Under the pieces are notes generated by a model that did not search any database, was not told where the DNA came from, and saw only the letters and a program-made list of their open reading frames with translations. DNA of 64,000 bases from Candidatus Omnitrophota bacterium. Lineage in GTDB: Bacteria > Omnitrophota > Gorgyraeia > JAHJTE01. Where the stretch lies: the NCBI GenBank assembly GCA_018830005.1, contig JAHJTE010000001.1:1332-65331 (forward strand). The letters run 5' to 3'. The translations under genes and the position numbers were made by a program. Below are positions 6,545 to 32,901 of the stretch, piece after piece (within the stretch, counting starts at the first letter, position 1; every line of letters starts with the position of its first letter).

Positions 6545-7699
6545 TTAACCTCTGTTTGATTTATTTTTTAGGACACTCTCCAGTTTTCCTCGCGAAAGAA
6601 TCGTCACCAATTCTGTCCCAACCATTACATCCTTGATATCCCTAATCACCTTATGATTCCTTTTATTAAAAGTAATACTGTATCCTCGCCTTAGAACATC
6701 TAGGGGGCTTAAGGCCTTGAACCTGTCTAGGAACCCTCTTGCCTTGGCAGTTTTTAGTTCTACCATCTGATTCAAACTCCTCCCTAGAGAAACAAGCAAA
6801 TCATCAAGACGCTGTTGATAATCCGGTATAAGCCTGTGCATGTATTGCTCTAGGCGTATTATCAACTCCTTTAATCTATCCTGCAGATTATCGCGAGATG
6901 GAATAATCAATTCTATTGCTGCCGAAGGGGTTGGTGCGCGCAAATCAGCAACAAAGTCTGCTATTGTCCAATCTACCTCGTGCCCTACAGCGCTAACAAC
7001 AGGAATCCGCGAGGAAAAAACAGCACGCGCTAGGACCTCTTCATTAAACGCCCAGAGATCTTCAAGACTACCACCGCCACGGGCAAGCAGCAGGCAATCA
7101 AAGTTGGCGTGTTTGTTTGCGAGCTTAACTGCTTGCGCTATCTCCCCTGCCGCCCCTTCTCCTTGCACCCGCACAGGAAAAAGCGTTGCCTGAATCAACA
7201 TTGCCCTTCGTTTTAGAACAGTAAGCATATCGTGTATAACTGCTCCAGAAGAAGAAGTAATAATTGCTATTCTTTTGGGAAGAGGTGGTATAGACCTTTT
7301 GCGTGCTTGATCAAAAAAACCTTCCCTGGCAAGCTTCTGTTTTAACTGCTGAAAGGCAAGTTCTAGACTGCCTAAGCCTTTTGGCTCAACGCATCTTGCA
7401 CATAACTGATAGTTTCCGCCCCTCTCATATACCCTCACGCTCCCGAAACAGAGAATCTGCATACCATCTTTAAGTTGGAATTTAGGTGACCTGTTATAGT
7501 CTCTAAAAAATACAGTGCGAATCTGGGAATGAGAATCTTTGAGGGTAAAATAGATATGTCCTGATGCAGGCCGGCTTAAATTCGAAACCTCACCTACAAC
7601 CCAAACATCTGGCAAGGAATTTTCCAGTACTGTCTTTATGTCCTGGGTTAACTCTTCTACGGTTAGAACCCGTCTTTTCCCTATTGTTTCTGAAGGCAT
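6545..7699 (-). CDS. xseA: Exodeoxyribonuclease VII large subunit
   Basis: 384 aa; an N-terminal OB fold (VWVVGEVSNLSRPASGHIYFTLKD) followed by the catalytic domain. Confidence 0.9.
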   Translation of the reverse strand: MPSETIGKRRVLTVEELTQDIKTVLENSLPDVWVVGEVSNLSRPASGHIYFTLKDSHSQIRTVFFRDYNRSPKFQLKDGMQILCFGSVRVYERGGNYQLCARCVEPKGLGSLELAFQQLKQKLAREGFFDQARKRSIPPLPKRIAIITSSSGAVIHDMLTVLKRRAMLIQATLFPVRVQGEGAAGEIAQAVKLANKHANFDCLLLARGGGSLEDLWAFNEEVLARAVFSSRIPVVSAVGHEVDWTIADFVADLRAPTPSAAIELIIPSRDNLQDRLKELIIRLEQYMHRLIPDYQQRLDDLLVSLGRSLNQMVELKTAKARGFLDRFKALSPLDVLRRGYSITFNKRNHKVIRDIKDVMVGTELVTILSRGKLESVLKNKSNRG

Positions 7700-26493: not shown

Positions 26494-26985
26494 TTATTTA
26501 TAGCGTCCTTTGTCTACATCAACAATGATCTCTTCATCAGAAAACCACAAATTTATCTCCCTCTCGGCATCTGCCTCATTTGCTGAGACATGAACAACGT
26601 TTTCATATACGCCGCCGGTGGTAATGCGTCCATAAGAGCCACGAATAGTTGTCGCCTCTGCCTCCTCTGGATTTGTGGTTCCGGCGAGCTGTCTTACTTT
26701 TTTAATCGCATCCGTCCCCCAGTATACAAGCGCCATTACCTTCCTTCTGTCATGCAGCTCTCCCATAATATACTTCATCAGCTCTGGGAAAAATGGTTTA
26801 TCTTTTAGGTGGCTGTAATGCTCCTGTGCTAATTTTTTGCTAACCCTGACTACCTTTGCGGCCACGATTTCCAGTTTTGTCTCTGAAAGCCGAGTAAGAA
26901 TATTGCCGGTTAAAGATTTTTTTAACCCGTCGGGCTTGATTAAAACTAAGGTTGCCTGGTTTCTTGTTTCTTTGTCTTTGTTCAT
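26494..26985 (-). CDS. ndk: Nucleoside diphosphate kinase
   Basis: 163 aa; LVLIKPDG, active-site His in NVVHVS, and REINLWF. Confidence 0.85.
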   Translation of the reverse strand: MNKDKETRNQATLVLIKPDGLKKSLTGNILTRLSETKLEIVAAKVVRVSKKLAQEHYSHLKDKPFFPELMKYIMGELHDRRKVMALVYWGTDAIKKVRQLAGTTNPEEAEATTIRGSYGRITTGGVYENVVHVSANEADAEREINLWFSDEEIIVDVDKGRYK

Positions 26986-27833
26986 CTCTTTAATAGCTCC
27001 GTTAATCGCTCCAAATCATCCAGATTATAAAACTCAATAACAATCGTGCCCTTATTTTTCTTTGATATATTAATTCGCACTTTTGTGCCTATTTTCTGCT
27101 GCAAGTTTTCTTCCGCAGCAAGAACATGCGCATCTTTCATGCTGCGCCTTGCAGATGTCTTTTTGCGTTTAGGACTTTCCTGAATTAATCTTTCTAATTC
27201 CCGCACGCTTAAAGAATTTGCAATTATTTTGTCGAAAAAATTTAACTGGTCTTTTGTAGCTGCTAATCCTAATAAAGCACGGGCATGCCCCATTGATATT
27301 GTGTTTTTACTAACCTCATCTTGAATCTCTTTTGGCAATTTGAGCAACCTTAAAGTATTAGAAATAGTAACCCTATCTTTTCCTACAGAGCTTGCCACAA
27401 CTTCTTGTGAAAAACCAAAGTCATTAATCAAGCGCTTAAACGCATGCGCCTCTTCTATGGGATTTAATTTCTCCCTTTGAATATTTTCAATAATCGACAA
27501 AACCAATGAATCTTTATTTTCTACATCTTTAATTATTACAGGAACTTGCGTCATTTTTAGTATTTTGGCTGCGCGTAAACGCCTTTCTCCTGCAACCAAC
27601 TCATATCCTGTGCTTGTAAGGCGCACAATAAGTGGTTGCAAAATCCCCTTCTCTTTTATGGAAGCAGACAGATCGTTTAATCTATCCTGAGCAAAATTCT
27701 CACGTGGCTGATATGTATTAGATTTTATCTTGTATACTTCAACATACTCAATGGACAATGATTGCTTGGCAGCGCTTTTGGGTCTTTCTGGGATTAAGGC
27801 AGCAAGGCCTCTGCCCAAGGCTTTAGTTGACAT
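26982..27833 (-). CDS. parB: Chromosome partitioning protein ParB/Spo0J
   Basis: 283 aa; VAGERRLRAAK ParB box and an HTH. Confidence 0.9.
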   Translation of the reverse strand: MSTKALGRGLAALIPERPKSAAKQSLSIEYVEVYKIKSNTYQPRENFAQDRLNDLSASIKEKGILQPLIVRLTSTGYELVAGERRLRAAKILKMTQVPVIIKDVENKDSLVLSIIENIQREKLNPIEEAHAFKRLINDFGFSQEVVASSVGKDRVTISNTLRLLKLPKEIQDEVSKNTISMGHARALLGLAATKDQLNFFDKIIANSLSVRELERLIQESPKRKKTSARRSMKDAHVLAAEENLQQKIGTKVRINISKKNKGTIVIEFYNLDDLERLTELLKR

Positions 27834-27915
27834 GATATTTCTCCTTACGCTCTATATATGCGTAAATGTCCAATATTATACATTAATTTACTATAACTCC
27901 TTTATTTTCATAGTG

Positions 27916-28683
27916 TTACATCAAATTATTACCCAAAATCTCTTTTGTCAATGATTCATACATCTTGGCCCCAAGAGAATTCTTGTCATGGAATAATATT
28001 GGTTTGCCATAACTAGGAGCCTCGCTAAGTCTTACATTCCTAGGTATAACTGTCTGGAACACCTTATCCTTAAAATACTCCCTCGCCTCTTGTATCACTT
28101 CTTGAGTTAAATTAGTGCGGTAATCAGCCATAGTTAACAATATGCCTTCAATACCCAGGTTGGGGTTTATTCTCTCTTTGACCAATTGGATGCTTTGCAA
28201 TAACTGGGTTAGACCTTCAAGAGCATAATACTCGCACTGAAGTGGTATTAAAACAGTATCTGCGGCTACGAGGCTATTAAGAGCAAGCAGACCTAATGAC
28301 GGCGGGGCATCAATAATAATGTAATCGTAACTTTCTCTTATGGGAGCAATTATCTCGCGTAGTCGAAGCTCTCTATTCTCAGCATTAGCTAGCTCGATTT
28401 CAAAGGCGACTAAATCAACATTGGCAGGTACTATATCTAAGCCAGATATAGCGGTCTTTTTTGAGGCTTCTTGCAGATGTTTGTCTCCAATAAGGCAGTG
28501 GTAAATGGAAATGTCCAGAGATCTCTTGTCAAGACCAATGCCGCTAGTAGAATTACCCTGAGGATCAATGTCCACTAACAGCACCTTTTTACCAGCGGTT
28601 GCCATGTAAGTGGCTAAATTGATTGCGGTTGTGGTCTTGCCTGTACCGCCTTTTTGATTACAAATTGTAATGGCTTTTGCCAT
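27916..28683 (-). CDS. parA: Chromosome partitioning ATPase ParA/Soj
   Basis: 255 aa; deviant Walker A KGGTGKTTTAINLA. Confidence 0.9.
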   Translation of the reverse strand: MAKAITICNQKGGTGKTTTAINLATYMATAGKKVLLVDIDPQGNSTSGIGLDKRSLDISIYHCLIGDKHLQEASKKTAISGLDIVPANVDLVAFEIELANAENRELRLREIIAPIRESYDYIIIDAPPSLGLLALNSLVAADTVLIPLQCEYYALEGLTQLLQSIQLVKERINPNLGIEGILLTMADYRTNLTQEVIQEAREYFKDKVFQTVIPRNVRLSEAPSYGKPILFHDKNSLGAKMYESLTKEILGNNLM

Positions 28684-28687
28684 ATGT

Positions 28688-29128
28688 TCACTGCTGCCTA
28701 TTTCTTAACTTGGTATTCTTATTGCTCAGCTTAGAAAGAGACAAAGCTAACTCTGCCAACTTCATTTTATCTGGCTGGCGGAATTTTTGCTTAACCTCGA
28801 ACATTTGTCTCCAAATCTTATAGGACTTAAGCTTTTTACCAAATAAAGGAAAATTATCAAAATGCTCGACGACCTTCTCTAGTTCCGAAACTCTTGTAAC
28901 CCTATAATAAACAGCTGGATTAGTCAACCCACTGTATTTTCTAGGGGGCGTTGCTTTTACATCGTAAATTGTACCGACGCCAAAGAATTCTTGGATCTGA
29001 AGGATTAAATCTTTGTCTTCCTCATTTAACTTAATTGCAAAATACAGATTTAATCTATCTCCGTGGCGACTGTATGTAAAAGCAGCTTCTCCTTCACAAA
29101 ATCCCGTTATAAACCAAGGGGTTAGCAT
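28688..29128 (-). CDS. Free-standing single-motif LAGLIDADG homing endonuclease (I-CreI-like)
   Basis: 146 aa; WFITGFCEGEAAFTY corresponds to the LAGFVDGDGSI block, and ILQIQEFFGVGTIYD to the I-CreI xxIGVGYVxD block. Not embedded in an intron or intein. Confidence 0.6.
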   Translation of the reverse strand: MLTPWFITGFCEGEAAFTYSRHGDRLNLYFAIKLNEEDKDLILQIQEFFGVGTIYDVKATPPRKYSGLTNPAVYYRVTRVSELEKVVEHFDNFPLFGKKLKSYKIWRQMFEVKQKFRQPDKMKLAELALSLSKLSNKNTKLRNRQQ

Positions 29129-29258
29129 TTATCAAAAAATCTATTCAAAATATGTTTCACATGAAAATGTTTCCACTGGAACATTTTCACATGAAACGTC
29201 TATCTCATTGTACATCTATATTAACAAAGTTATCAAATCGGGTCAAGTAAAATTACTC

Positions 29259-29438
29259 TTATTTCTTAACTATGGTCACCCGTACCCGCGCAGGCTTTCC
29301 GCCTTTCATGCCAAAAAGGCCCTTTTTCTCCTCAGAAAGGATCTGAATCTTAGCATCCTTGCGGGAGACCTTGAGTATTTTTAAGGCCTTCTTAATGGCT
29401 GCTTCGGGAGTTTTGTCTTCTATTTCAATGCTTTCCAT
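29259..29438 (-). CDS. Jag/KhpB N-terminal-domain-only small protein (59 aa); a truncated jag downstream of yidC
   Basis: MESIEIEDKTPEAAIKKALKILKVSRKDAKIQILSEEKKGLFGMKGGKPARVRVTIVKK matches the Jag_N pattern (TVEEAI..AL..L......V.S.EKKGF.G..GKKPA.V). KH and R3H domains are absent. Below the ORF-track cutoff. Confidence 0.5.
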   Translation of the reverse strand: MESIEIEDKTPEAAIKKALKILKVSRKDAKIQILSEEKKGLFGMKGGKPARVRVTIVKK

Positions 29439-30976
29439 TGACTCGCCATCATTAATAAGCTGTTAGTGAACCAATACAACACCAAGCCAGAGGGCATATT
29501 ATAAAATATAAAACCAAATACAATAGGCATGACCCAGAGCATCATCTTTTGCTGTTCACTTTGCGTGCCAGAGACATTACGCATGGACATTTTCTGCTGG
29601 AAGAACATTCCTACCATCATCAAAATCGGCAGCAGATTAATATCCATTCCGCCTAAACCTCCGGGGATAAACCGATCAGGCGCTGAAAGGTCTTTTATCC
29701 ATAAAAAACCCGCACCTTTAAGTTCAATGGCTCGAGATAAGGCCTGGAATAATGAGAAAAACACAGGAATCTGGAATATTACAGGAAAGCATCCTCCTAG
29801 TGGATTGGCCTTGTGTGCCTTGTATAATTCCATTATTTCCTTATTAAGTCTTTGCGGGTTGTCCTTATATTGGCTTTTCAATGCCTCCATTTCAGGTTGT
29901 AAGGCCTGCATTGTCTTCATTGAGCGCATCTGCTTTATTGTCAATGGGTAAAGGCAAATATAAATTAATATTGTCAAAATTATGATGGAAAGACCCCAGC
30001 TCTTAACTACATTGTGTATAGATAATAATGCTCTTAATAAGAACTTAACTATTGCATCCAACTTGCCAAAATTGCGTATCTTTTCGAAATCTGCACCACT
30101 TGCAACTAATAATTTGTCAATCTGAGGCCCAGCGTAGTACAAAAACCCGTCTTTAACTTCTTCACCAGGCTGAATAGCTTGATTCTTACGATACACCTTA
30201 ATTATGTCATTGCCATCTGTTGTCTTGGCTATGTCAATTGATTCAAATGCTGAAGAAGTAGGATGGAGGATATATGCGAAATACTTATCACGCAAGCCTA
30301 CCCACCTGAACGCTTGTTTGAACTCTTTATTAGTGCCTTTTCTAATACGTAAGTTATTGTGCCGCAAAATGTTATCTTCATCAATCATGATTGTGGTATC
30401 TTTATACCGCTCATCTATTGAAGACTTTGACGGCGAGAATTCAGAAAATATTGTGTAGTAACTATCTGTGTTATAAGGAGTTAGGTTACGAATCGTTAAA
30501 TAAAACTCAAGGTAATAACCACCTTCTGAAAATTTATACTCCTTAGTGATTTCTTTTTGTTCATCCTGATAAGTAAAGATAATAGCGTCTTGCCTCTTGC
30601 GATGGGAAAATTCCAAATCCGACCATTCCTGTGTGGCAACTAACGCATTGGAAGGAACATCAAAATCATACTGTTTAAATTTAATAGAAACAAGATTGCC
30701 GCCAAAAGGAGAAAATCCGAAAATCACAGCTTCTGTTTCTAAGGAAATTGGGGTATATTCAAGAGCAGGAATCTGCTGTGGTGCTGGCGACTCTGGCTTA
30801 GGATATGCTTTAAATTTGGGAACAGAGGTTACTGGTACTGAATCTACACCTCCGGCCAAATCATCTGTAACTTCTTTATTTTCAATAGGATAGTACTTTG
30901 ATGACAGAGAAGAATAGACAATTATAATTAAAATAGATAACACTACAGCAATAACTGTTCTTTTTTGCAAGTCCAT
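29420..30976 (-). CDS. yidC: Membrane protein insertase YidC
   Basis: 518 aa; a periplasmic domain plus a C-terminal 5-TM insertase core (PLGGCFPVIFQIPVFFSLF). Confidence 0.9.
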   Translation of the reverse strand: MDLQKRTVIAVVLSILIIIVYSSLSSKYYPIENKEVTDDLAGGVDSVPVTSVPKFKAYPKPESPAPQQIPALEYTPISLETEAVIFGFSPFGGNLVSIKFKQYDFDVPSNALVATQEWSDLEFSHRKRQDAIIFTYQDEQKEITKEYKFSEGGYYLEFYLTIRNLTPYNTDSYYTIFSEFSPSKSSIDERYKDTTIMIDEDNILRHNNLRIRKGTNKEFKQAFRWVGLRDKYFAYILHPTSSAFESIDIAKTTDGNDIIKVYRKNQAIQPGEEVKDGFLYYAGPQIDKLLVASGADFEKIRNFGKLDAIVKFLLRALLSIHNVVKSWGLSIIILTILIYICLYPLTIKQMRSMKTMQALQPEMEALKSQYKDNPQRLNKEIMELYKAHKANPLGGCFPVIFQIPVFFSLFQALSRAIELKGAGFLWIKDLSAPDRFIPGGLGGMDINLLPILMMVGMFFQQKMSMRNVSGTQSEQQKMMLWVMPIVFGFIFYNMPSGLVLYWFTNSLLMMASQWKALK

Positions 30977-30983
30977 TATAGCC

Positions 30984-31196
30984 TCACTTCACAGGGTCAA
31001 ATCCGCCTCGGGAGAACCCTTGGCAACGTAATAGGCGCCAAAAGCTCATGATCAGACCACGAAACACGCCATGTTTTATTAAAGCATGTGTGGCAAACTC
31101 TGAACAGCTTGGCGAAAAACGGCAGGTAGGGAAAGGAGAGAGCACGCGGGAGATTTTTTGGTAAAGCTTTATAATCCAGACTAAGATTTTGCTCAT
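30984..31196 (-). CDS. yidD: Membrane protein insertion efficiency factor YidD
   Basis: 70 aa; [11 protein letters not shown] motif. Confidence 0.85.
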
Positions 31197-31198
31197 TT

Positions 31199-31336
31199 TT
31201 ATTTACTAAGACGGTGCCTGCCTTTGGCACGCCGTCTTTTTAAGATTTTTTTCCCTCCAACAGATTTCATTCTCCGACGAAAACCGTGCCTTCTTTTCCC
31301 TTTTATAAGCGTTGGGGTCTTAAGATGCTTTTTCAT
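31199..31336 (-). CDS. rpmH: 50S ribosomal protein L34
   Basis: 45 aa [45 protein letters not shown], translated manually from the reverse strand. Below the ORF-track cutoff. Confidence 0.85.
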
Positions 31337-31560
31337 AGGTTTGTAATTATATCATAACGCTTCTTTTAGTCAAGTAAAATTGCCTGATTAAAAATTTTTC
31401 TTGCAAAAATAGTTTCCTCTGTTATAATAACTCCCTGTTATCATATCTTGAAGGATAAAATATAACAACCTGAGATTGCCTTTCCTGTTGATAAGCTGTG
31501 GATACTGTGTAAAACTCTTCGTATCTCTGTTAATAATATACGTTTTGCATCAAACTTCTC
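31337..31560. promoter_or_regulatory. Probable oriC / dnaA promoter region at the rpmH-dnaA divergence
   Basis: rpmH and dnaA diverge here and the gene-strand bias switches at this point. The region is AT-rich with a DnaA-box-like TGTGGATAC at 31497-31505 and TTATCA variants. Confidence 0.4.
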
Positions 31561-32901
31561 TTGTCTATGGACAGTAATAAAGTCTGGGCATCTGCCTTAA
31601 AAAACATTGAAAACGTTGTTGGTCAAACCGCCATAGAAACCTGGTTTGCGCCGATACAAGCTAAGTTGCTCGAGAACAAATTCATCCTAGAAGTGCCTGA
31701 TGAGTTCTTTAAGGATTGGGTAATACAGCATTATCTTAAATTGATTAAAAGCGCTTTGGAAGAAGTAGTCCCTGATTTTCCTCACGATATACAGGTGCGT
31801 GTCAATGCGCTTATCTACAAGAGCCGGGAGCAATCGCGTCTTGCTGATTTTACCCAGAGGGTCCAACCACGTCAAATAACTACCCTAAATCTGAACAGTC
31901 GTTTTACCTTTGATCAGTTTGTTATTGGCTCATCCAATAGGTTTGCCCATGCAGCCAGCCTTGCGGTGGCTGAATCTCCTGCCAAGGCCTATAATCCGTT
32001 TTTTATATATGGAGGGGTGGGCCTAGGCAAGACCCATCTTATGCAGGCCATTGCCCATTTCATTCTAAAAAAGCGCAATGACGCAAAGATCACCTATATC
32101 CCTAGCGAAAAATTCACCAATGAACTCATCGGCGCTATTCAGCATCGTTCCACGTCACAATTTCGTACTAAATACCGCAATGTTGATGTGTTGTTAATAG
32201 ATGATATCCAATTCATCGCTGGTAAAGAATCTACACAAGAAGAGTTTTTTCATACCTTTAATGAATTATATGATCACCATAAACAGATCGTTCTCTCCTC
32301 GGATAGGCCGCCACGAGAAATAGCCAACCTGGAAGAAAGACTTATCTCCCGATTCCAATGGGGATTGATTACGGATATTCAACCGCCAAATTTTGAAACG
32401 CGCATTGCTATTCTAAAGAAAAAAATCGAACATGAACCAGTGCAGGTTCCGGAAGATGTCGTCTATTTTATCGCTGATTTAATAAAGACCAATATTCGGG
32501 AATTAGAAGGGGCCCTGATCCGTGTCATTGCCTATTCGCTGCTTGAGGAAAAAACAATATCCTTGAATCTAGCTCAAGACGTATTACGAGACATGTTAAC
32601 CGAGTCTGCCAAAATCATTACAATCGAGCGCATACAGAAAGAGGTAGCCGGCATGTTTAATGTAACGGTTAATGAGGTGCGCTCGAAACGCCGCACTAAA
32701 AATATTATTTTACCTCGACAGATTGCCATGTATCTTGCAAGAGAGTTAACGACTCAATCTTTGCCGGAAATCGGCGAGGCCTTTGGAGGAAAAAACCACA
32801 CTACAGTACTCTATGCCTGCAAGAAGATAAAAAAAGAAATTAACAACAATAAACAGGTAAGTAATTTTGTAAGTAGTATCTTAAAAAATATTAAACAATA
32901 A
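31561..32901 (+). CDS. dnaA: Chromosomal replication initiator DnaA
   Basis: 446 aa; AAA+ motifs GGVGLGKTHL and LLIDDIQF, and a C-terminal DnaA-box-binding domain. Confidence 0.95.
   Translation: MSMDSNKVWASALKNIENVVGQTAIETWFAPIQAKLLENKFILEVPDEFFKDWVIQHYLKLIKSALEEVVPDFPHDIQVRVNALIYKSREQSRLADFTQRVQPRQITTLNLNSRFTFDQFVIGSSNRFAHAASLAVAESPAKAYNPFFIYGGVGLGKTHLMQAIAHFILKKRNDAKITYIPSEKFTNELIGAIQHRSTSQFRTKYRNVDVLLIDDIQFIAGKESTQEEFFHTFNELYDHHKQIVLSSDRPPREIANLEERLISRFQWGLITDIQPPNFETRIAILKKKIEHEPVQVPEDVVYFIADLIKTNIRELEGALIRVIAYSLLEEKTISLNLAQDVLRDMLTESAKIITIERIQKEVAGMFNVTVNEVRSKRRTKNIILPRQIAMYLARELTTQSLPEIGEAFGGKNHTTVLYACKKIKKEINNNKQVSNFVSSILKNIKQ

Follow-up and report, generated by a model that had tools for sequence, protein, structure and literature searches.

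On the minus strand of a 64,000-nucleotide stretch of a Candidatus Omnitrophota genome (assembly GCA_018830005.1, contig JAHJTE010000001.1, positions 1,332 to 65,331; hereafter the window) lie, in order, rpmH, yidD, yidC, an open reading frame (ORF) for an isolated Jag_N domain, a 130-bp spacer, a gene for a LAGLIDADG protein that we call LAG, parA, parB, ndk, yicC, gmk and rpoZ. In this work we describe LAG, the parS-like sites in the spacer ahead of it, and the distribution of the two across related loci (numbered below with the prefix L). We consider it on balance probable that LAG is an intact, free-standing, single-domain homing-endonuclease gene that has the parS leader of the parAB chromosome partition operon as its niche and probably also as its recognition site.

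A free-standing LAGLIDADG gene between jag and parA

LAG possesses its own start and stop codons between jag and parA, and in most relatives its stop codon overlaps the ATG of parA (TAATG). An Rfam search of positions 26500 to 31600 at E<=1 gave just two chance matches and found neither a group I intron nor any other RNA family, and therefore the gene is not carried by a group I intron; nor does the ORF lie in frame within a host protein, so that an intron- or intein-encoded endonuclease was ruled out. ORF calls, Pfam and Rfam agree with the first-pass annotation, made by inspection of the letters, in placing a free-standing single-motif LAGLIDADG gene outside any intron or intein, with the Jag_N-only gene on one side and parA on the other. 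Coordinates of the features discussed are collected in Table 1.

Table 1. Positions in the window of LAG, the leader sites and the neighbouring genes.
Feature	Position	Strand	Basis and remarks
LAG, 146-aa single-domain LAGLIDADG_1 protein	28688-29128	-	ORF list and PF00961; start MLTPWFITGFCEGEAAF; first cistron of the par operon
S1, parS-like 16-mer, distal site, coding strand CGTTTCATGTGAAAAT	29183-29198		read from sequence; identical in L182
S2, parS variant with non-parS centre, TGTTCCAGTGGAAACA	29168-29183		pattern match; candidate LAG homodimer site
S1', second parS-like 16-mer, ATTTTCATGTGAAACA, proximal to LAG start	29153-29168		pattern match; identical in L182
Promoter-like TTGACC-17 nt-TAATAT, TG before the -10	29218-29246	-	consensus scan; presumed LAG-parA-parB promoter
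parA, Soj-type ATPase, 255 aa	27916-28683	-	begins 4 nt past the LAG stop
parB, ParB_N + HTH_ParB + ParB_C, 283 aa	26982-27833	-	profile matches; presumed reader of S1 and S1'
Jag_N-only gene, 59 aa	29259-29438	-	overlaps yidC end; context, outside the cassette
yidC	29420-30976	-	upstream flank; anchor for unbiased sampling of relatives
yidD	30984-31196	-	
rpmH	31199-31336	-	
dnaA	31561-32901	+	divergent from the minus-strand genes of the locus

Fold and catalytic residues of the LAG protein

The similarity to LAGLIDADG enzymes on which the first-pass annotation had staked its identification of the gene is present in profile searches: the protein matches Pfam LAGLIDADG_1 (PF00961) at 58.8 bits, above a cut-off of 23.1, in one domain spanning residues 7-109, with relatives from other phyla scoring 39-55 bits against the same profile. 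The Pfam scan found no second domain, and no helix-turn-helix (HTH). Among solved structures, LAG comes nearest in sequence to the N-terminal domains of I-OnuI, I-CpaMI and I-AabMI (E~1e-17, 24-29% identity), and Glu14 in the LAG motif TGFCEGEAAF aligns with the catalytic glutamate of I-OnuI-type enzymes. An AlphaFold2 model computed with 31 homologues as input (predicted local distance difference test score, pLDDT, 88.8) has the expected core, with helices (H) and strands (E) in the order H4-14, E15-22, E25-35, H36-49, E53-57, E72-77 and H80-92. The top 50 Foldseek matches of this model are all LAGLIDADG enzymes at probability 1.00, and include a full-length alignment with the single-domain homodimer I-TnaI (5gkk; template modelling score, TM, 0.72), to which sequence similarity is weak (E 1e-3). 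I-CreI was not recovered among the closest structures by sequence or by fold; the earlier label 'I-CreI-like' thus holds for the single-domain architecture and not for kinship, the nearest structures being the I-OnuI, I-CpaMI and I-AabMI N-domains together with I-TnaI.

LAG has a counterpart at 100% identity in a Candidatus Omnitrophota metagenome-assembled genome (MAG), and a protein search returned 32 homologues of 133-167 residues at 82-44% identity; at E<=1e-10 the family numbers ~1,600 members. Glu14 is invariant in 31 close homologues, while in the wider single-domain family position 14 is glutamate or aspartate in 188 of 209 members and non-acidic in the remaining 21. Lys99 is 92% conserved in the family, in a column that is 100% lysine in a control LAGLIDADG family. 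LAG therefore keeps the acidic residue and the active-site lysine of a competent LAGLIDADG enzyme, and is predicted to be active. The protein has one domain per chain and is presumably homodimeric, and palindromic candidates for its target (S2 with its flanks, and parS) adjoin the gene.

As judged from substitution ratios, the LAG protein is under purifying selection: across twelve pairs the ratio of nonsynonymous to synonymous substitution rates (dN/dS) comes to 0.04-0.23, no different in range from that of ParA and ParB. Decayed copies also occur, with GE replaced by AA and a 12-residue deletion in L031, and with the glutamate replaced by cysteine in L123. Two types of LAG can be told apart by their tails, type A (...KNT...; the window, L001, L003 and L008) and type B (SRAFKVHK).

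parS-like sites ahead of the gene

Compared with the universal parS consensus TGTTNCACGTGAAACA, also written TGTTTCACGTGAAACA, the sites S1, S2 and S1' are the only parS-like sequences in the window, at 3-4 mismatches each; three matches against 1.07 expected is not significant alone. A scan of the 64 kb for sequences within 3 mismatches of the consensus gave no others. The composite of S1 and S2 occurs at one location only in the 64 kb. The three sites abut, forming a 45-bp quasi-palindrome, and S2 with its flanks is itself a palindrome of ~22-26 bp (GAAAATGTTCCAGTGGAAACATTTTC), of the general form AAATGTTCC-nnnn-GGAACATTT, whose size and symmetry are those expected of a homodimeric LAGLIDADG target. 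The promoter-like site lies between the jag stop codon and the parS sites, and a TTGAC...-10 pair is found at the same place in the leaders of relatives. ParB presumably binds S1 and S1', to go by their resemblance to the consensus. In relatives the homologous S1 is closer to parS, with 1-2 mismatches (e.g. TGTTTCACGTGAAAAA in L008, with 1 mismatch).

In relatives without LAG a single palindromic parS usually stands ~25 nucleotides before the parA ATG (e.g. ATGTTCCACGTGGAACAT in L014 and L017), and the placement of S1 and S1' between the promoter and the first par gene is like that of this single site in chromosomal ParABS leaders. Unlike LAG-less leaders, however, those that carry LAG have a doublet or triplet of sites, an extra S2 at 15 bp from S1, and an endonuclease gene before parA. 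A ~31-bp composite, aaTGTTCCgCGTGaAAA-TGTkcc-nnnn-GGAACAtTT, is found upstream of LAG in 50 of 54 non-redundant LAG loci, in either orientation, sometimes extended to S1-S2-S1', and in most loci 16-35 nucleotides before the conserved Pro4-Trp5 (PW) codons. Among loci sampled through yidC (see below) it is present in 9/9 with LAG and in 5/71 without (Fisher 9e-9). Of the latter five, only L035 and L042, both close relatives of the LAG-positive L055, hold real doublets (at 7626-7657 and 7644-7675, respectively, before parA), which may be footprints of precise LAG loss or may show how that clade looked before insertion. The window and L182 have the same S1 and S1' but differ in the centre of S2, which also varies more from locus to locus than any other part of the composite.

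In the 5' untranslated region of LAG, a terminator scan also marked an 18-pair hairpin on the coding strand (29154-29197) with a T-rich tail behind it. The symmetric triplet recurs in L001, L113, L117 and L182 and could act at the RNA as well as the DNA level. An RNA attenuator as the general function is unlikely, given that most loci have only S1-S2.

Patchy distribution and horizontal exchange of the cassette

A sample of loci independent of the endonuclease was assembled by searching GTDB, at one genome for each species, with six aligned YidC proteins of Omnitrophota, which gave 80 loci that were annotated with hidden Markov models built from the first loci. LAG is present in nine of these 80, always directly 5' of parA and after the stop codon of jag or yidC. 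Seven independent contigs with homologues have the order (yidC)-(Jag_N gene or nothing)-LAG-parA-parB-ndk-yicC-gmk-rpoZ, with the LAG stop abutting or overlapping the parA start, and LAG also stands directly 5' of parA in ~35 metagenome loci. On a neighbour-joining host tree of concatenated YidC, ParA and ParB (62 taxa, with the window and the earlier loci among them), the 13 taxa that have LAG fall at nine separate positions, each with LAG-less sisters, the nearest of which share 87% (L030/L027) and 82% (L055/L042) host protein identity with a carrier. Fitch parsimony places LAG as absent at the root and requires at least nine changes of state.

The histories of gene and host conflict most clearly in L055, which carries a type B LAG, although its host is sister to that of L003, a carrier of type A. 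The two hosts share 67% protein identity and their LAG proteins 40%, whereas the LAG of L055 is 64-69% identical to type-B genes in distant hosts that are themselves 45-48% identical to the L055 host. The LAG tree supports the split between type A and the rest at 100% bootstrap and the host tree at 0%; for the grouping of L003 with L055 the two trees change places, with 100% from the host tree and 0% from that of LAG. Synonymous divergence (dS) is similarly discordant: between L115 and L119 it is 0.18 in LAG against 1.2-1.3 in the flanking genes, and in the opposite direction it is 2.6 against 0.48-0.73 between L030 and L037, and 1.3 against 0.6 between L101 and L102. Sliding identity delimits the tract concerned, at 93-100% within and 75-88% outside for L115 and L119, and at 48-75% within and 85-95% outside for L030 and L037. 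In both of these informative pairs the discordant tract runs from the jag stop codon to the first ~30 nucleotides of parA, which means that leader and ORF are exchanged together as one unit. Comparison of empty and filled sites revealed two outcomes. Relative to the empty L042, the LAG ORF of L055 has entered precisely where parA starts and is bounded on either side by an ATGGCWAA repeat, its flanks ATGGCAAA and ATGGCTAAA showing a seamless insertion; relative to the empty L027, the whole leader of L030 after the -10 box has been replaced. A palindrome at the 5' end of parA in some loci (ATTGCAATTTGCAAT) was dropped as a candidate since it is not conserved.

To the extent that sequence comparison can show it, LAG is a mobile cassette exchanged horizontally between genomes. 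It is present or absent at one homologous site and its history is decoupled from that of its flanking genes, as in homing genes. To be gained, to spread, to decay and to be lost at a single site is the classic course of homing endonuclease genes, and such a cycle is described in PMC13619312. Exchange is not evident in every lineage: between the window and its nearest relative, L182, dS is 0.77 in LAG and 0.48-0.92 in the flanks, with a LAG dN/dS of 0.16, and the copy of the window lineage looks to have been inherited vertically since that split.

The family beyond Omnitrophota

A metagenome scan and a second protein search extended the LAG family past Omnitrophota, to contigs of 62-70% guanine-plus-cytosine (GC) content and to Parcubacteria. 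In the GC-rich group, NCBI gives one protein cluster (P0293) the label Myxococcales, and in two contigs a bactofilin gene comes after parAB; phylum assignment outside Omnitrophota and Parcubacteria relies on one named MAG plus gene order. On these assignments the phylum-level groups would be Omnitrophota, a Myxococcota-like group and Parcubacteria. The genomic contexts outside Omnitrophota are varied, with LAG lying upstream of parA in divergent orientation and next to gidB-gidA-mnmE, flanked by gidB and bioF, or beside the gene for the CCA-adding enzyme. The doublet is nonetheless found directly upstream of LAG also in Myxococcota-like (GC 66-70%) and Parcubacteria loci that have no parA downstream (for example CGTTCCACGTGAAAATGTTCCATTTGAAACA in a contig of 66% GC). 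As the doublet is kept across these differing contexts, the constant partner of the LAG family is the parS doublet and not parA.

Several of these loci have further arrangements. In L094 (819-1350) the doublet stands on both sides of LAG as direct repeats, and in L092, L093, L095 and L109 two copies lie 50-90 nucleotides apart upstream with promoter-like sequence between them; such repeated doublets may mark the resident and the imported copy after insertion. In L175 and L178 (GC 66-68%), parA-parB is followed by the bactofilin gene and the ATP synthase operon, with LAG placed divergently between parA and gidB, a gene order that we take to resemble the parAB-bactofilin region of Myxococcus.

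No LAG homologue was detected in 50,697 phage records, and plasmid records gave only two weak matches, both unannotated. These are the Peribacillus frigoritolerans 'plasmids' NZ_CP110133.1 and NZ_CP110134.1 (26-39 kb), which have several LAGLIDADG-like stretches at 31-34% identity and look more like fungal mitochondrial DNA than bacterial plasmids. With no phage match and just these two records, a phage or plasmid origin of LAG was rejected.

A conserved DNA-contact surface and a possible shared site

In LAGLIDADG enzymes the base contacts are made by four beta strands, and the central four base pairs of the target form the cleavage site, which is read only indirectly. We compared residue conservation in 93 non-redundant members of the LAG family with that in 71 control domains from two-domain I-OnuI-like proteins retrieved with the same profile. 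The mean frequency of the top residue in family and control, respectively, is 0.75 and 0.47 in strand 1, 0.65 and 0.39 in strand 2, 0.61 and 0.28 in strand 3, 0.72 and 0.35 in strand 4, and 0.55 and 0.43 in the helices. Individual residues of the strands follow suit, with T18, S20, R21, Y29, K33, Y55, Y74 and R76 conserved at 86-99% in the family and at 12-43% in the control. A DNA-reading surface that hardly varies between phyla implies that the DNA site is shared, and no DNA motif other than the doublet is common to the LAG loci. We infer that a LAG dimer would recognise a parS-like palindrome. Since the centre of S2 varies most among loci, and since the centre of a LAGLIDADG target is where cleavage takes place and is read only indirectly, it is a reasonable inference that S2 is a copy which would be bound but not cut.

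Other features of the origin region

The gene rnpA, for the protein of RNase P, is missing from its canonical slot between rpmH and yidD/yidC in the window, and searches by tblastn with the RnpA proteins of L002 and L003, which keep the gene at the canonical place, gave no match in the 64-kb window or in eight related loci (L001, L006, L008, L011, L012, L017, L021 and L030). Several Omnitrophota relatives (L002, L003, L006 and L008) have a DciA gene after dnaN in their origin region.

A proposed mechanism and comparison with known systems

The cassette consists of a leader with a parS-like doublet (S1 near consensus, S2 a variant with a variable centre) plus the LAG ORF, seated in the 5' leader of parAB between the jag stop and the parA start codon. 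Judged by its position, LAG would be co-transcribed from the par promoter as the first cistron, and its translation is probably coupled to that of parA. In the mechanism that we propose, a LAG dimer would recognise parS-like half-sites and would cut the perfect parS palindrome in cassette-free leaders, and recombinational repair would then replace the empty leader with the cassette. Through the parS of the cassette itself (S1) the host would keep its centromere, and parA would keep its translation start. S2 would be the immune copy that protects the carrier and may also serve as an operator, a model proposed by analogy with I-TevI, which binds an operator resembling its target and represses itself (PMC3384342). 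That parS or a variant of it is the cognate site of the whole family, in at least three phylum-level groups and with LAG serving either as a homing endonuclease of the centromere leader or as an accessory factor of ParABS, is plausible, though we hold it slightly less probable than its opposite.

The single-motif homodimers I-CreI, I-MsoI, I-CeuI and I-TnaI are likewise single-domain proteins, from which a palindromic target of ~22 bp would be expected for LAG; however, they reside in group I introns of rRNA genes, whereas LAG is free-standing in an operon leader. The fungal mitochondrial enzymes I-OnuI, I-LtrI and I-CpaMI give the best sequence and fold matches and belong to the same Pfam family, but are intron-encoded monomers of two fused domains with asymmetric targets. 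Their DNA-contact residues are highly variable, in contrast to the nearly invariant ones of the LAG family. In its gene arrangement LAG resembles the free-standing homing endonucleases of phages, which are also intron-less genes between conserved genes and spread by double-strand break repair with co-conversion of short flanks. Unlike LAG, these phage enzymes and I-TevI belong to other nuclease families (GIY-YIG, HNH) and are found in phage genomes.

Several of our results weigh against a homing endonuclease directed at parS. Neither of the empty and filled pairs (L042/L055 and L027/L030) yielded a cleavage site, which leaves the target a candidate only. Carriers retain parS-like sites beside the gene, so that cutting parS would demand protection, whether by ParB occupancy or by sequence differences. 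In the window lineage, LAG has been vertical for a dS of ~0.8 and still has a dN/dS of 0.16, which fits a function beneficial to the host. The doublets of the LAG-less L035 and L042 mean that the doublet is not strictly specific to the cassette, and the composite template was derived from the loci on which it was scored, except in the YidC-anchored test. Finally, the trees are neighbour-joining reconstructions on three proteins only.

Alternative explanations

The strongest alternative is that LAG has been co-opted as an accessory or regulator of the par system, in which a LAGLIDADG dimer binds S2 beside a ParB-bound parS to the benefit of the host, for instance as a control on the loading of ParB or on transcription of the par operon. 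Some nuclease activity might or might not persist, and the gene would still be exchangeable as a cassette. We regard such a role as unlikely, although it deserves serious weight. It would suit a gene that is the first cistron of parAB with overlapping stop and start codons, that has a parS doublet beside it in three phylum-level groups, that is under purifying selection also in pairs with congruent dS (the window and L182, L006/L010, L113/L117), and that encodes a nearly invariant DNA-contact surface; the 21 of 209 full-length family members that have lost the catalytic acid yet remain recognisable would fit as well. There is also a precedent in WhiA/DUF199, a bacterial protein with a LAGLIDADG fold that, like LAG, is tied to chromosome partition genes, and that regulates parAB2 in Streptomyces (PMC3384342; PMC3781837). 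WhiA, however, consists of two degenerate LAGLIDADG domains plus a C-terminal HTH and has lost its catalytic residues (PMC3384342), whereas LAG is a single domain that keeps Glu14 and Lys99, with no HTH and a patchy, mobile distribution; it was not classed as a domesticated protein of the WhiA type, having one domain and its catalytic residues. In addition, roughly 60 of 70 sampled Omnitrophota do without LAG, its scattered distribution requires at least nine changes, gene and host trees conflict at 100% bootstrap, its catalytic glutamate and lysine are kept, unlike in WhiA (PMC3384342), and no DNA-binding or protein-interaction domain has been added. The proposal of the first-pass annotation that LAG is a domesticated endonuclease of the par locus fits less well than homing a gene that is patchy, horizontally exchanged, sometimes decayed and still in possession of its catalytic residues, though it keeps some probability through the tie to parS and through purifying selection even where inheritance is vertical. 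A co-opted role and homing are not mutually exclusive.

Homing by LAG, as we favour it, is also to be set against an ancestral operon gene that was inherited vertically only, with many losses and no mobility, which we consider very improbable. The fixed position of LAG in all loci, the congruence of dS in several pairs and the correlation of LAG with host identity (Pearson 0.62 overall, 0.91-0.96 in the first 7 loci) speak for such a history. Against it stand the type B gene of L055 beside the type A gene of its sister clade L003 (40% identical, with bootstraps of 100% against 0%) and a LAG dS that is ~6-fold lower (L115/L119) or 4-5-fold higher (L030/L037) than in the flanks, with sharp tract bounds. 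Pure vertical inheritance with loss was rejected on this discordance of trees and dS.

No more credible is a nuclease of competition or defence that would cut foreign replicons (plasmids, phages or rival chromosomes) bearing chromosomal-type parS while its own sites are protected. The association with parS and the kept catalytic site would be compatible with this conjectural idea, and LAG does match the 'HEase' models of PADLOC; these are generic homing-endonuclease models that belong to no defined system, though, and LAG has no homologues in phage or true plasmid records and no conserved partner genes besides parAB. As a defence-system component LAG was rejected, with only the generic PADLOC models matching and marginal PHROGs hits (E 2e-3).

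The last alternative concerns the short gene upstream. Jag/KhpB (EloR) proteins comprise Jag_N, KH and R3H domains, whereas the 59-residue ORF of the window matches Jag_N (PF14804) at 61 bits with no KH or R3H, and reaches 48 bits against NCBIfam Jag_EloR, under the cut-off of 145. A tblastn search with full-length outgroup Jag, covering the flanking DNA in which remnants of the missing domains might have been sought, matched only residues 1-58 at 29265-29438 and found no KH or R3H remnant elsewhere in the 64-kb window; Pfam, NCBIfam and tblastn all confirm the earlier description of the jag gene after yidC as Jag_N only. When the yidC-jag-parA locus was compared across relatives in the YidC-anchored sample, ~45 LAG-less Omnitrophota loci were found to have yidC, a Jag_N-only gene of 59-100 residues, and then directly parA-parB, without an endonuclease gene. 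Jag proteins of 212-307 residues occur in outgroup loci (Abyssobacteria, Desulfobacterota-like and others), and Pfam recovered Jag_N, KH and R3H in two outgroup proteins and Jag_N alone in three from LAG-less Omnitrophota. On the evidence of the sampled loci, the Jag_N-only gene is ancestral for Omnitrophota and independent of the endonuclease, because ~45 LAG-less loci carry it and only outgroups have KH and R3H. It is 86-88% identical to its counterparts in L001 and L182, at a dN/dS of 0.05-0.17, and one clade (L003, L019, L020, L032, L035, L036, L042 and L055) has no jag gene at this position. The idea, put forward in the first-pass annotation, that a homing-endonuclease gene entered a full-length jag/khpB and took the place of the part that encodes KH and R3H has only the adjacency of the two genes in the window to recommend it and next to no probability, in view of the short gene followed by parA in the ~45 LAG-less loci, the L003/L055 clade that has LAG yet no jag, an exchanged tract that begins after the jag stop, the lack of KH or R3H remnants in the window, and purifying selection on Jag_N. 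That Jag has been cut down to the N-terminal domain across Omnitrophota, with no part played by the endonuclease, is thereby a settled point.

Implications

To our knowledge, free-standing LAGLIDADG genes in bacterial chromosomes have been little studied, and full-text searches for literature linking LAGLIDADG or homing endonucleases with parS, ParB, the centromere or Omnitrophota returned only WhiA and unrelated papers. What is new here is the niche, and the probable target, of a free-standing LAGLIDADG homing endonuclease, namely the centromere leader. If this proves true, LAG would be a selfish element that has landed on one of the most conserved non-coding sequences of bacteria, which would explain its reach across phyla. 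One would then have to ask how cells put up with a nuclease directed against their centromere, whether through protection by ParB or through variation of the central bases. LAG would also provide a natural meganuclease scaffold with a defined palindromic target, as well as a handle on the regulation of the par operon in uncultured Omnitrophota.

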